Assembly: GCA_958295785.1 (NCBI GenBank)
Contig: OY282377.1
Coordinates: forward strand, 2,880,385 to 2,944,384
Origin: an uncultured Latescibacterota bacterium
Lineage (GTDB): Bacteria; Latescibacterota; UBA2968
DNA length: 64,000 nucleotides
Reading direction: 5' to 3'
Under the pieces are notes generated by a model, which was not told where the DNA came from, searched no databases, and saw only the letters and a program-made list of their open reading frames with translations. The position numbers and the translations under genes are program-made. Position 1 is the stretch's first letter. Each line of letters starts with the position of its first letter. Of the stretch, positions 45,390 through 51,440 are shown in pieces.

Positions 45390-45780
45390 ACACAGGCATG
45401 ACCCTGCGGGTATAATACTAAATTGACTTTCTGTTGACCTGATATGATGCGATATGCTACCCGCAAGCGATCCCCTTGACCTTACGCAGTCATTCAGAGA
45501 AGCCATGGCAACCAGGCCATCCCAAAAGACCCTCCGATAAAGCCATCGCGCACAGCGCGCAAGGCCATCTCGCAACCCACAGCCATCTTGCAACCCACCT
45601 CGCAGGCCAACGCATGTCGTGCTGTTACAAAAGCGATTTGCGCTGTGCCAGCCTCTCGGCGCATGAGAGCGGCATTTTTGAACTGCTAAGGCAGTTGTAC
45701 CCCGCTCGCCTACTTTTTTTTGCTGTTAAAAAAAAGTAGGTCGCCGCTCGCCGTAGGCACAGGCGTAGCCAACGCATCAA
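45390..45780 (+). repeat. conserved ~340-bp non-coding element, copy A (candidate MITE or ncRNA), with an A/T-stem hairpin
   Basis: About 85-90% nucleotide identity to the inverted copy at 51045-51440. Contains the perfect hairpin CCTACTTTTTTTTTGCTGTTAAAAAAAAGTAGG. ORFs on both strands are equally conserved, so it is non-coding. Confidence 0.6.
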
Positions 45781-45837
45781 AGGCAACCCACATGGAGGGG
45801 TTAGGGGGGTAGGTCCCGATAGTTTTGAGATAGCTTC

Positions 45838-46374
45838 TTAGGGCTTGCCGAGGTTAAACCCTATTCCCACGGCGGCACGCAGGGCACTCGCGTCTTCTTC
45901 TTCGCCAATGACCCAGCGAATCTCGAACAAAATCTCCATCTTGCGGCGCAACAATTGTTTTTCCATGCCGATGAGAATAAAGTGAAGCGAGGCCTGGTAT
46001 TCACTTTGAAATTTGTTGGTGATCAATCTCTCGCGGCGCACGCGGTTCACCCCCAACCCGCCGCCCATATACGCAAAAGCGGTCCCAGATTTGTGCGGCC
46101 ACAAATACTTGAGAAAAGCCCCACCGCCTCTCGCCCGAATCTCTGTCCCGTCGAGGTCGGCTCCTCTGCCCGCCTCTGCGCCGATTTCGAGACGCAGATT
46201 GGGCGTAAATACCGTTGCGATATCGGCTTGAAGGACAAAGAAATGCCGCGTGTCATTTGCCTGCACAACATCCAAACCCACCTTGGTTGCCAGATTGTAA
46301 AGCCCAAAACCCGCCTGGGCACCCGATGCAAAAACAATCAAAACAAAAAATCCGACACCCGCAAAAACCCTCAT
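45838..46374 (-). CDS. small outer-membrane beta-barrel protein (OmpW/porin-like)
   Basis: Signal peptide MRVFAGVGFFVLIVFASGAQA and alternating amphipathic beta-strands. RBS GAGGAG. Confidence 0.55.
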   Translation of the reverse strand: MRVFAGVGFFVLIVFASGAQAGFGLYNLATKVGLDVVQANDTRHFFVLQADIATVFTPNLRLEIGAEAGRGADLDGTEIRARGGGAFLKYLWPHKSGTAFAYMGGGLGVNRVRRERLITNKFQSEYQASLHFILIGMEKQLLRRKMEILFEIRWVIGEEEDASALRAAVGIGFNLGKP

Positions 46375-46422
46375 AATACACTCCTCGCAACACTGCTCGG
46401 CTGTGCCGGATGGAACGCCCTG

Positions 46423-46746
46423 TCACCCACGCGACGACGCGGCCAGTGCCAACTGTTTGAGATGAGAATAGGTATAAAGTCCCGTATCGTGTCCATCTGT
46501 CCACCGAAATTGAAGCGCGTAATTCCCCACGGGAACGACATCCGCCAGATCGACAGACGGTGTTTGATCCGTTGTAATCATCTGCAATTGCGCGGCTTGC
46601 TTTGCCCGCAACCCTTCGCACAAAGCACAGGGGCAAGCTTTTCGCACCTCATGCAACATCACGCGCAAAACCCCTTCGTCTGCCCACTCCGTTTCGAGCC
46701 ATCCCCTTGCGCGGTCAACGCGAATCCGTTTGGGTTTTTCTGCCAT
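46423..46746 (-). CDS. DUF971-family protein
   Basis: CPCALCEG and WTDGHDTGLYTYSHL motifs are typical of DUF971. Confidence 0.55.
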   Translation of the reverse strand: MAEKPKRIRVDRARGWLETEWADEGVLRVMLHEVRKACPCALCEGLRAKQAAQLQMITTDQTPSVDLADVVPVGNYALQFRWTDGHDTGLYTYSHLKQLALAASSRG

Positions 46747-46756
46747 AGCCCGTCCC

Positions 46757-48385: not shown

Positions 48386-48815
48386 TTTTGACGGAAAAAA
48401 CGCTGTCTAACGTCCGCTATCGCAACAATAGTCGAATATACACGATGAGCCGACCATCTCGCAAACCCACAATGTGGCACTGGTGCCCATCGAATCGGTC
48501 AGGTGAATGGGGCGTTCAGGTTGAAGTGTACCGGTTGCTGGCGCCCATCGTTGATCGTCACATTATCGGCGTAGAGGTAGGTTCGATCTAGGGTATCGGG
48601 TATTGGATTCAAGCGCCCCTGAATGCCCGGCAAATGTCCCGTGCGATTGGCGATAATCAGCGCGCCTCCGCCTGATACGGGTTGCATGCAAAGCTCGAGG
48701 GGTTGGTCGGACACATATCGGTGGCCGCGGCCAAGCGGATCTGTTTCCATAGATGTGGCGTATCAATAGGCATGGTATCTACCTATTGCGTGCCGGGTCA
48801 GGTCAACGGTCATCC

Positions 48816-49601
48816 TCAGCTACCAAACGCATTTGCAAATGCGATAAAGTCATTAAAATCAATGGCTCCGCCGCTCGAATCGAGATCCATGCGGGCATCA
48901 TAACCGTCCTGCCCTGGTGCTTTGCCAAACGCATTTGCAAATGCGAGAAAGTCTTGAAAACCAACTTTTCCATCCCCAGTAAAATCAGCAGACGGAGTTG
49001 TTTTCGCAAAACTGATCACGATTCTAATTGGATCATCTTTGGGAACGTGCTGTTCAAGTGCGCCCCTTGCCAATCCCCTCACAGCCGGGCTCAATGACGA
49101 TAATAATTCATCTAAAAGAAGGGGGCGCATAATAAACAAGGAATCCGCTGTCGCCGTGTACGTGTAGCGAAGCGCATCTTCATTTTCGCGCGTGATGACA
49201 AGTTGGTTATCGGCTTCCAAAGTGTAATTCCCCGAGTATTGGCTCGTATCGGGCACAGAGACCGAAATGGAGATCAATAATACCGCACTGATATCAGAGA
49301 GTGTCGTATAATCGGCTTGAACAGTGCCATTAGAATCAAAAGTTATTGTGCCATTGGTCTCGCCTTCAAATGTAAGCGGAGCGACAGCTTTCACGAGCGC
49401 GGCCGGGGCATAAGCGCTAAGCGAGGTCATCTCGGCTTTCCACGACCCGACGATAGCACCGCCCTGAGGCTGTGGACGCATGGTCAGCAATTCCGCGTCT
49501 GCCGGTCCAAACGCGATGCCGACCATCAGCGCGAGAGCGAGCAAATTTCTCACCGTGTTATTCCATCCATGAACCGCAATGCTAAAAATTGAACCGCACA
49601 T
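48816..49601 (-). CDS. secreted protein with a C-terminal dockerin-type (EF-hand-like) repeat pair
   Basis: Signal peptide. C-terminal DFTGDGKVGFQDFLAFANAFGK ... DLDSSGGAIDFNDFIAFANAFGS are two dockerin type-I calcium-binding repeats. RBS AGGAGGGAAA. Confidence 0.6.
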   Translation of the reverse strand: MCGSIFSIAVHGWNNTVRNLLALALMVGIAFGPADAELLTMRPQPQGGAIVGSWKAEMTSLSAYAPAALVKAVAPLTFEGETNGTITFDSNGTVQADYTTLSDISAVLLISISVSVPDTSQYSGNYTLEADNQLVITRENEDALRYTYTATADSLFIMRPLLLDELLSSLSPAVRGLARGALEQHVPKDDPIRIVISFAKTTPSADFTGDGKVGFQDFLAFANAFGKAPGQDGYDARMDLDSSGGAIDFNDFIAFANAFGS

Positions 49602-49959
49602 ACCATTTCCCTCCTGTGTGAGTTTTGATTCGCTTTCCCATTCCTCTATCCCAACCCTCTATCAATTTCCAATTTACGCAATTCGCGTGCCTTCAGCAAC
49701 CCTTTTAACTCGCGATTCAGATTCGTAGATTTGCTGACTCGGACAGGCACGGAGGCCTGCCCCTAGGATTTTCATGCGTATTCACCGACCCCGTTCCGTT
49801 GATTTGCCCGTTGTAGGCCGTATCTGTCCGTTTTGTCATACACTGTGCTCGCGATTGTAACATGAGGGATAATCTCTTGTCGCGTTTTGCCTTGTGTGTT
49901 ATAGTGTAAAATGTTGCAATTCAGAGCAAGTTTGTACTGTTTCGCCAAAAGGAGCACGT

Positions 49960-50904
49960 ATGTTGCATTGGGTTCTCGCAGATGTCGATCTGCCAGATGA
50001 AATTTTAGAAATGTTGAACAATCGCTGTGAACTCCACATCTTGGCGCGTGGCGGTGTTTCAGACGAAAAATTCGCACGCGCACAAGGGCTACTCACGTAT
50101 GGGCATCCGATTATCACTGGCGCGTTTATGGATCGCATGCCCAATTTGAAAGTCATCAGCAATTTTGGCGTTGGCGTGGATCACATTGACCTGCCAGCGG
50201 CCAAACAACGCGGCATTCCCGTGGGCAATACGCCCAATATGCTCGACGGCGCAACCGCCGATATGACCTTTGCCATGCTCATGGTCGCCGCACGCAATAT
50301 CGTTATTGGCGACCGCTTTGCCCGCAGCGCGGCATTTACCCACTACGACCCGCGCATTCTGATCGGCTACGAAGTCCACGGCACGACGCTGGGGATTATT
50401 GGCATGGGCAATATCGGGCGGCAGGTCGCGCGCCGGGCATCGGGATTTGACATGAACATCCTCTACCACAACCGCAAGCCCGATCCCAAAGCCGAGGCCG
50501 AATTGGGCGCGACTTACGCTTCGCGCAATGACCTGCTCGCGCAATCGGACTTTGTGACCCTGAACGTGCCCCTGACGGATGAAACGCGCAATATGATCGG
50601 CAGGGATCAACTCAAGCGCATGAAGAAAACCGCCATCTTGGTCAATCTGGCACGCGGCGGCGTTGTGGATCACGACGCACTCGCGGAAGCCCTCGAAAAC
50701 AAGTGGATCGCGGCAGCCGCGCTCGATGTGACCGAACCAGAGCCTTTGCCGCGCGACCATCCCCTTTTGGCCATGGACAATGCGATCATCGCGCCCCACT
50801 TGGGCAGCGCCACGCGCCAAACGCGCCTCGCTATGGGGCAGCGCACCGTTGATAACCTCCTCGCGGGACTCTCGGGAAAGCCGTTGATCACTGCGGTGGT
50901 GTGA
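49960..50904 (+). CDS. D-isomer-specific 2-hydroxyacid dehydrogenase (glyoxylate/hydroxypyruvate reductase-like)
   Basis: GIIGMGNIGRQVARR NAD-binding motif and catalytic R/E/H context (HLGSAT). RBS AAGGAG before the ATG at 49960. Confidence 0.85.
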   Translation: MLHWVLADVDLPDEILEMLNNRCELHILARGGVSDEKFARAQGLLTYGHPIITGAFMDRMPNLKVISNFGVGVDHIDLPAAKQRGIPVGNTPNMLDGATADMTFAMLMVAARNIVIGDRFARSAAFTHYDPRILIGYEVHGTTLGIIGMGNIGRQVARRASGFDMNILYHNRKPDPKAEAELGATYASRNDLLAQSDFVTLNVPLTDETRNMIGRDQLKRMKKTAILVNLARGGVVDHDALAEALENKWIAAAALDVTEPEPLPRDHPLLAMDNAIIAPHLGSATRQTRLAMGQRTVDNLLAGLSGKPLITAVV

Positions 50905-51044
50905 AAAGGAACTACGGGCATGTCCCGGCATGGTGTAATACCAATTTGATTTTAAGTTGTCCGTATCTTGCCTCCCTTCAGGGAGGAATGAGGAACAGGC
51001 GTTCCGCAGAGATCATGTGTTGCTCGTCTCAAGCGTTTGGCCCT

Positions 51045-51440
51045 ACAGCATCGTTTGTTGCCTGTGATGCGTTGGCTACGCCTGTGCCTACGGCGTGCGG
51101 CGACCTACTTTTTTTCAACAGCAAAAAAAAGTAGGCAAAAAATGCCGCTCTCATGCGCCGAGAGGCTTGCACAGCGCAAATCGCTTTTGTAATAGGACGA
51201 CATGTGCTGGCCTGCGAAGGAAGTTGCAAGAGGGAGGTTGGTTGCGAGACGGCCTTGCGCGCTGTGCGCGATGGCTTTATCGGAGGGTCTTTGGGGATGG
51301 CCTGGTTGCAATGGCTTCTTTGAATGGTTGCGTAAGGGCAAGGGGATCATTTGTGGGTAGCATATCGCATCACATTAGGACAACAGAAATTCAATTTGGT
51401 GTAAGTTGGGATGAACGCAGATGAAAGGCACGAAAACCAC
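51045..51440 (-). repeat. conserved ~340-bp non-coding element, copy B (inverted relative to copy A)
   Basis: Reverse complement aligns with 45400-45780 except for a ~29-bp indel. Same CCTACTTTTTTT...AAAAAAAAGTAGG hairpin. Confidence 0.6.

Follow-up and report, generated by a model that had tools for sequence, protein, structure and literature searches.

The DNA analysed here, called the window, is a stretch of 64,000 nucleotides from an uncultured Latescibacterota bacterium (contig OY282377.1), in which two inverted copies of a non-coding element, copy A and copy B, bracket a block of genes. On the minus strand, this block encodes a 178-amino-acid (aa) protein, a GBBH-like_N/DUF971 protein, a TPR protein, an 87-aa protein, a coiled-coil repeat protein and a lipocalin/EF-hand protein, and on the plus strand a 2-hydroxyacid dehydrogenase. 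The promoters of the block are internal, in the divergent region 49601-49894. Copy A lies past the point where the 178-aa gene stops (45838) and copy B past the stop codon of the dehydrogenase gene (50904), from which its right end is separated by 31 nt, the 3' ends of genes thus facing both repeats. A preliminary description of this DNA had proposed three options for the element: a dispersed non-coding RNA gene, a miniature inverted-repeat transposable element (MITE), or a pair of repeats able to invert the surface-protein genes between them. The analysis below indicates that A and B very probably belong to a dispersed, MITE-like repeat family and bracket the block only incidentally. Among the gene labels initially given to the block, DUF971 (the same as GBBH-like_N), TPR and 2-hydroxyacid dehydrogenase are supported by Pfam. 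The 178-aa protein, taken for an outer-membrane protein, has no Pfam match, the name XhlA-like is backed by sub-threshold coiled-coil matches only, and the supposed dockerin protein retains a weak EF-hand match, the domain assigned to it being Lipocalin_4.

The locus was compared with contigs L002 (5.63 Mb, a circular genome), L003 (2.47 Mb), L004 and L028 (1.82 Mb) of ENA sample ERZ19489113, all of them long-read contigs. The exact 178-aa protein is encoded on L002, L003 and L004, and a variant form of it on L028; the window sequence is identical to none of the four. The window and these contigs are five haplotypes of one species, and all share the order NadA, MR_MLE, CreD, CrcB, copy B, dehydrogenase ... 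178-aa gene, copy A (or its site), VTT, Ddl. In sister species, the 178-aa protein is 90% (L025), 88% (L005, L008, L021-23) or 76% (L006) identical, and its homologues at 57-61% identity carry the NCBI label Candidatus Latescibacteria/Latescibacterota. A further contig, L032, is the 6.34-Mb genome of another species.

The inverted pair of ~340 bp reported initially is borne out by a repeat search of the window, which found two pairs of inverted arms, 45417-45679 / 51138-51400 (263 nt, 89% identity) and 45708-45787 / 51057-51136 (80 nt, 96% identity), and by the BLAST E value of the A/B match, 1e-120, far above chance. The arm pairs are parted by an indel that only copy A carries; its presence had been recognised correctly, and its length is 27 nt instead of ~29. 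Likewise, the A/T-rich hairpin described as perfect in each copy is perfect in copy A, has a G opposite a T in copy B, and contains a stem of T8, not T9. The limits first drawn for the copies, 45390-45780 and 51045-51440, are replaced by those of the family alignment (Table 1). Copy A is truncated at its 3' side, having lost ~95 nt on the right together with the terminal inverted repeat (TIR) of that side, and copy B is ~120 bp longer than the part common to both. The 340 bp shared by A and B therefore correspond to the overlap of a truncated copy with a complete one.

The element is not confined to this locus. A search of fetched sites with the element profile detected five further full copies (L029:18807-18319, 10475-9960 and 15407-14958; L030:10501-10010; L031:10403-9953) as well as a fragment (L029:13338-13428), which lies with the three full copies of L029 within 9 kb. 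At least seven full copies and one fragment are thereby distributed over four separate regions of one 5.63-Mb genome, the fetched sites being at ~1.14, 2.19 and 4.37 Mb and the window pair at ~5.13 Mb of the 5.63-Mb contig. Copies at scattered sites were what the preliminary description had named as the mark of a generic MITE, and it is this option that the dispersed copies, the 16-30 clusters of related open reading frames (ORFs) described below and the 18-bp TIRs with TA termini support. Independent copies are 77-91% identical in pairwise comparisons. Copy A is 88.6% identical to copy B, 89.5% to L030a and 90.6% to L031a (lower-case letters denote individual copies of a contig); judged by these identities, A and B are no special pair and are not each other's closest relatives. 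The flanks beyond the TIRs are unrelated among copies. All seven full copies are located between co-directional genes and nearly fill the spacer, some of them only 6-38 nt from a gene, with no preferred orientation relative to these genes (three with, four against).

Diverged members were detected at non-syntenic sites in three other species (L005:13013-13128, L025:12050-11948 and L032:10342-10036). The one in L032 is ~75% identical, and those in L005 and L025 (L005x and L025x), at unrelated intergenic sites, match the 5' third of the element weakly and in part, the former over L005:13047-13130. The L005 member is contained, beside a tandemly duplicated 19-mer GAGTTCAGACTTGCCCTTT, in a ~190-nt piece with CCATCAC repeats within the region L005:12741-13297; upstream of the MraY-like gene, L021-23 have only ~40 nt where L005 has this piece. 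A synteny comparison through the MraY-like gene next to L005x found L021-L023 without the piece, and the orthologue of the window species was not recovered. Exact scans gave one chance match, in Janthinobacterium, for a 23-mer in GTDB genomes, seven chance matches for a 20-mer in JGI metagenomes, and no homologue for two patterns in IMG/VR; nhmmer and alignment confirmed that the matches of these pattern scans (17-23-mers) are due to chance. A blastn search of plasmid and phage collections gave no match.

An alignment of seven independent copies defines a unit of 448-516 bp (~470 bp) with ~52% G+C, which starts with TAATAC(T/C)AAATTGATTTT and ends with AAAATCAAATTGGTATTA; beyond these points the flanks are unique. 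The ends constitute 18-bp TIRs, identical at 16 of 18 positions, with 5'-TA termini. The TIR is found at both ends of three complete copies, copy B of the window, L029a and L031a, and has diverged in L029c and L030a. The 18-mer of the right TIR of copy B recurs at the right end of L029a and L031a and of the copy-B orthologues in L002-L004 and L028. An alternative pair of ends, TGTTGACCT…GATGCG / CGCATC…AGGCAACA, considered as a TIR or closing helix, was discarded: the longer copies put the true ends ~100 bp further out.

Table 1. Features of the two copies and their surroundings in the window (positions of the whole stretch).
Feature	Position	Strand	Details
Copy A	45413..45798	+	386 bp, profile positions 1-386 of 495; nhmmer with family profile, E = 2.8e-143
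Copy B	50936..51404	-	Complete, 469 bp, profile positions 2-495; nhmmer, E = 2.6e-161
Left TIR of copy A	45413..45430	+	TAATACTAAATTGACTTT, preceded by TA; regex match, 1 mismatch to consensus
Left TIR of copy B	51387..51404	-	Degenerate, TTACACCAAATTGAATTT
Right TIR of copy B	50936..50953	+	+ strand reads TAATACCAATTTGATTTT, 16/18 identical to left-TIR consensus
C-rich array of CCATC-type motifs, spacing 13-25 nt	45499..45598	+	TRF, alignments
GC hairpin CGCGC-ACA-GCGCG	45547..45559	+	Copy B: 51270-51258
Weak terminator-like hairpin, CTCTCGGCGCATGAGAG + CGGCATTTTT	45653..45679	+	Copy B: 51164-51138
Optional 27-nt hairpin module, GAACTGCTAAGGCAGTTGTACCCCGCT	45680..45706	+	Alignment of copies
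A/T-rich hairpin CCTAC-T8-GCTGTT-A8-GTAGG	45709..45740	+	Copy B: 51135-51104
Optional 24-nt REP-like module, CTCGCCGTAGGCACAGGCGTAGCC	45747..45770	+	Copy B: 51097-51074
Hairpin CCTCCC-TGAA-GGGAGG, right part of unit	50971..50986	-	In copy B; absent from truncated copy A
Family X end fragment, outside the element	45799..45840	+	93% identical to 36398-36441
Gene block between the repeats	45838..50904	mixed	Kept in sister species without flanking repeats

The interior of the unit is modular. Of the whole unit, the CCATC array, which includes an 18-nt tandem repeat (GCCATCTCGCAACCCACA, 1.9 copies), is what can still be recognised in the diverged members L005x, L025x and L032. The strand GCACAGCGC of the GC hairpin is also complementary to GCGCTGTGC, ~85 nt downstream; this hairpin is the same in all full copies and so offers no covariation test. 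The terminator-like hairpin is not above shuffle expectation, and some copies have a disrupted stem. The A/T-rich hairpin exists in two self-complementary haplotypes, CCTAC/GTAGG and CTTCC/GGAAG, the latter in L029c and L031a. Copy A of the window and of L002, L029a, L029b and L030a contain the 27-nt module, which copy B, copy A of L003 and L004, L029c and L031a lack, so that it varies between strains at the very same locus. The 24-nt module is missing from both copies of L002, from copy B of L028, and from L029c and L032. The simplest reading of this variation in optional modules would be ectopic gene conversion across the family. Elsewhere in the window, a sequence like the 27-nt module occurs at 41350-41387, and short repeats related to the 24-nt module at 51453-51485 and 36333-36369.

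The element is non-coding, as stated initially, and the ORFs found in it are spurious. Over the seven independent copies, substitutions are distributed among the codon positions as 20/18/19 (p = 0.95), without periodicity, and none of the six frames has a synonymous fraction outside 0.22-0.30; the comparison of A with B alone shows a coding pattern in no frame either. On the reverse strand of copy B there is an ORF of 109 aa (51095-51424). When used as a protein query with phmmer, it matches 30 cluster representatives at 62-82% identity, with E values down to 1e-36, and 16 clusters at 90% identity, among them three on the 5.63-Mb contig of L002, two on a 5.66-Mb contig, one on that of L003 and one on the 6.34-Mb contig. 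These matches, the long stop-free reverse frames of several copies (164 codons in L030a, 171 in L029b) and the divisibility by three of the 27-nt and 24-nt indels would be expected of a real small protein, an explanation that is nevertheless close to negligible in probability. The synonymous fraction is neutral in every frame, the open frame varies among copies (R0, R1 or R2), and the other indels measure 1, 2, 4, 7, 19 and 25 nt. The matched stretch moreover occupies shifting positions within "proteins" of 57-272 aa, and Pfam detects no domain in ten of these tested, except in one unrelated low-complexity protein. Gene callers passed over the ORF in L002-L004. The spurious ORF is nonetheless of practical use, since such a repeat-derived query of protein databases leads to other copies where a scan of the DNA is not possible.

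Both insertion sites vary within the species or between species. Copy A is absent from strain L028, where window positions 45204-45794 are replaced by ~105 nt of a second dispersed repeat, family X. At neither border of the block is the element present in the sister species L005, L006, L008 and L021-23, and both insertion sites are empty in L025, L005, L006 and L008; in L025, only 42 nt separate the 178-aa gene from the VTT gene. The boundaries between filled and empty sites are unclean, copy A being truncated and set in a mosaic spacer. A canonical terminator with a GC stem and a T run follows the 178-aa gene in L005, L021 and L006.

The spacers around the two copies contain several other small repeats. 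Family X is ~280 bp long, with imperfect inverted ends of ~38 bp (TWAGAAG…TCTTAAAA…GACC…CCCCC); a full copy lies at 36160-36441, and a shortened one, L028:10815-10960, which is fuller than the fragment in the window, takes the place of copy A. This end fragment touches copy A where the latter is truncated, and extends over the 178-aa gene's stop codon. In L003 and L004, the left TIR of copy A has received a second MITE of ~115 bp (L003:10928-11043 and L004:10926-11041, equivalent to window 45418/45419), with TIRs …CCCTAACA / TGTTAGGG… and a duplicated TA on its flanks, which the window and L002 lack. The two inserts differ at ~9 of 115 positions and their flanks are ~99% identical, which suggests either independent insertions at the same TA or a fast turnover. 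At the left end of copy B in L028 (window ~51383-51395), an IS630-family insertion sequence (IS) of ~1.2 kb (L028:3938-5123; helix-turn-helix and DDE_3 domains; ends CTCTGTAAATTAA…) is inserted, and a truncated copy of the same type lies at window ~5530-6010. L002 carries a 1092-bp IS (L002:5251-6342, window ~49901-49905; DDE_Tnp_1, ends TAGGACTTACGCA) between the dehydrogenase and lipocalin/EF-hand genes; this type is also found at window ~3290-4340, where fragments of IS1595 and IS630 adjoin it (3.3-6.0 kb). The spacer that separates copy A from the VTT/DedA gene contains CAGATGAACG (window 45263-45300), a tandemly repeated unit of 10 bp that is present 3.8 times in the window, ~20 times in L002, ~4 times in L003 and ~6 times in L004. 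A 16-mer, GATGAACGCAGATGAA, lies near the left end of copy A, beside copy B (51410-51425, +) and at 36512-36527 (-); the third site points to another dispersed short repeat.

These properties fit those of a MITE. Bacterial MITEs possess TIRs and 5'-TA-3' termini, encode no protein, are intergenic and occur in many copies (PMC2229807). RUP of Streptococcus pneumoniae and Correia of Neisseria are the nearest models: like them, the element is non-coding with TIRs ending in 5'-TA-3' (PMC2229807), intergenic, dispersed in many copies (here 77-91% alike), present or absent according to the strain, and a target for nested IS and MITE insertions. RUP is thought to be mobilised by IS630-Spn1. A transposase recognising the 18-bp TIRs would move, or would have moved, the unit in trans, a mobility deduced from anatomy; insertion would take place at TA or TWA sites, in short spacers between co-directional genes, with a putative target-site duplication. 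Divergence of the copies, loss of ends and an exchange of modules through ectopic gene conversion would follow, and the copies would themselves receive other IS and MITE insertions. The inverted bracket is incidental: A and B enclose the block in opposite orientations because the block consists of two divergent gene sets and each copy sits in the spacer beyond the last gene of one of them. In contrast to RUP and Correia, which measure ~100-160 bp, the unit reaches ~450-500 bp, is not A+T-rich overall, resides in Latescibacterota and has no partner IS with matching TIRs found here; its TA/TWA duplication is only putative. A second comparison can be made with REP/BIME sequences, since the two optional modules (24 and 27 nt), like other short motifs, are met again in several intergenic regions of the window and give mosaic spacers; however, the main unit is long and bounded by TIRs instead of being an array of 20-40-nt palindromes, and no gene for a REP-associated tyrosine transposase (RAYT) was seen. 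The family is new and the kind of element known, and its biology is ordinary; a literature search returned no report linking Latescibacterota to MITEs.

Several observations weigh against this assignment. Among the IS copies examined here, there is no autonomous element with matching TIRs: the ends of the DDE_Tnp_1 IS, of the IS630-like IS and of the IS1595 fragment all differ. The termini read TA-ATAC…GTAT-TA, and three of the five complete copies have identical trinucleotides, TAA/TAA or TTA/TTA, outside TAC…GTA as a candidate target-site duplication, bases that perhaps belong to the TIR itself. Classic bacterial MITEs, of <200 bp (PMC2229807), are smaller and richer in A+T than this unit of ~470 bp and ~52% G+C, although the 448-516 bp of the unit remain within the general MITE range of under about 600 bp. 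The copy number given above derives from a biased sample of ~145 kb of the species' genome and is not a direct genome-wide count. Finally, the conservation of the CCATC array and the compensation in the A/T-rich hairpin may point to a constraint other than selfish spread.

One alternative was that A and B are inverted substrates for the flipping of the 5.3-kb surface-protein block, as in a shufflon, a phase-variation switch or a RecA-mediated inversion polymorphism. With ~340 bp and 89-96% identity, the inverted arms have a length sufficient for homologous recombination; several polymorphisms of A match the state of B, which suggests sequence exchange between them, as does the shared lack of the 24-nt module in A and B of L002 and in the remaining B of L028; and the borders of the block are synteny breakpoints between species. 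However, order and orientation are the same in all five haplotypes, compared at the contig level, copy A is missing altogether from one of them, and Pfam scans of the larger ORFs of the window detect neither a tyrosine nor a serine recombinase but only fragments of DDE transposases (3.3-6.0 kb). Only the 3' ends of genes meet the repeats and the promoters are internal, so that flipping would alter no link between promoter and gene. The repeats are generic family members and not locus-specific sites, and the module variants are shared with distant copies such as L029c, which makes the exchange family-wide instead of specific to A and B. Invertible switches such as the R64 shufflon, fimS, Hin/Gin and the invertible promoters of Bacteroides resemble the locus in that two inverted repeats flank a segment with surface-associated genes. 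In these switches the inverted repeats are short (9-30 bp), a site-specific recombinase is encoded nearby, and a promoter is flipped or gene 3' ends are swapped. Here, by contrast, the repeats are ~340-bp stretches of a generic family, no recombinase gene was found nearby and only gene 3' ends are concerned. The proposed switch is thus very improbable, given also the strain variability of A and the fact that A and B are not closest relatives. Equally hard to sustain, and if anything less credible still, is an origin of the pair by segmental duplication of a single intergenic region, locally and in inverted orientation. The copies are just 5.1 kb apart and GATGAACGCAGATGAA lies near the left end of both; yet copies 0.8-3 Mb away resemble A more closely than B does, the homology ends at the family's own ends with unrelated flanks beyond, and the 16-mer common to both sites occupies the same genomic strand at each, even though the copies are inverted. 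A diversity-generating retroelement, with A and B as template and variable repeats, was also considered and set aside, as their differences are not adenine-specific.

The remaining alternatives operate at the RNA level. A free-standing non-coding RNA gene, the first of the initial options, finds no support in Rfam, in a conserved promoter or in an orientation bias relative to neighbouring genes. With Rfam 15 at gathering threshold, the whole window yields only one tRNA, located elsewhere, and at E <= 10 copy A, copy B and L005x yield only noise. A small RNA gene with its own promoter and terminator was rejected as well: the only sigma-70-like site of copy A is mostly outside the repeat, is absent at B and is parted from copy A by a MITE in two strains, and the terminator-like hairpin is weak. 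A different proposal is that the family consists of RNA modules spread by mobility and kept for a function exerted when transcribed, such as mRNA stability, termination or the binding of a protein to CCAUC motifs. The location of all seven full copies in co-directional spacers, with genes sometimes 6-38 nt away, makes read-through transcription likely. The array persists in the diverged members with a motif variant uniform within each array (CCATCAC in L005x, CCATCGC in L025x), the A/T-rich hairpin has its two self-complementary haplotypes, both strands fold better than shuffled sequences (z = -3.3 and -2.5), and ERIC offers a precedent of co-transcribed MITEs that affect mRNA stability (PMC2229807). 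On the other side, RNAalifold applied to eight sequences of close relatives, too similar for a test of structure, shows almost no covariation (a covariation term of +1.3, with 2 of 79 pairs), the absence of an orientation preference leaves no consistent sense strand, the hairpins gather mismatches between strains, and the symmetry of a DNA palindrome can persist without any RNA function; neither a conserved promoter nor an Rfam match adds to the case. The element shares with ERIC/IRU its short co-directional spacers, its insertion in either orientation, its internal hairpins and a possible operon read-through, and differs from it in sequence, to which it has no similarity, in size and in being known from sequence alone. 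To our knowledge, ERIC is restricted to enterobacteria and vibrios. A mobile RNA-level module of this type, in which the CCAUC array and the A/T-rich hairpin would act on a read-through transcript, is therefore regarded as unlikely. Its array, with a 13-15-nt spacing, C-rich and G-poor, would resemble a Rho-loading or protein-titrating site, and its copies could uncouple or stabilise operon segments in Latescibacterota.

Additional features were observed in the neighbourhood of the block. Both of its borders are synteny breakpoints when window 45838-56134 is compared with L005, L021, L025, L006 and L008. The left flank consists, according to the species, of CreD/CrcB, CreD/Cas6-like, sulfatase or aldo-keto reductase genes, and the right flank of VTT/Ddl or Prs/HisI/MraY-like/NadA; the NadA-NTP_transferase segment is on one side of the block in some species and on the other side in others, and in L005 the Cas6-like gene adjoins the dehydrogenase gene. 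Within the block, the coiled-coil repeat gene (47823-48356, -) carries nested tandem repeats of 21, 33, 96 and 117 nt; its product measures 174, 177 or 181 aa depending on the strain, and a (TTTTTC)n tract lies just upstream (48356-48389). Two direct repeats, TAATATACA(T/C)GTCTTT, are located at 51570-51640, upstream of crcB (51656-52027, +), which encodes a CrcB fluoride channel; no fluoride riboswitch is detected there by Rfam even at E <= 10. Further away, window 28411-35941 (-) contains three consecutive genes for dynamin-family GTPases of 1188, 733 and 589 aa, the largest with helix-hairpin-helix repeats at its C-terminus, and window 6461-15708 contains five large consecutive plus-strand ORFs (880, 852, 696, 505 and 195 aa) without a Pfam match at E <= 1e-5.

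The main value of this analysis lies in a correction: what resembled a phase-variation switch at surface-protein genes corresponds, on the MITE-like reading, to two chance insertions of a generic repeat. A MITE-like family with TIRs, optional modules and nested insertions is described here in an uncultured phylum. The intergenic spacers of these genomes are fast-changing mosaics of several small repeats, a property that matters for their annotation and for the comparison of strains.

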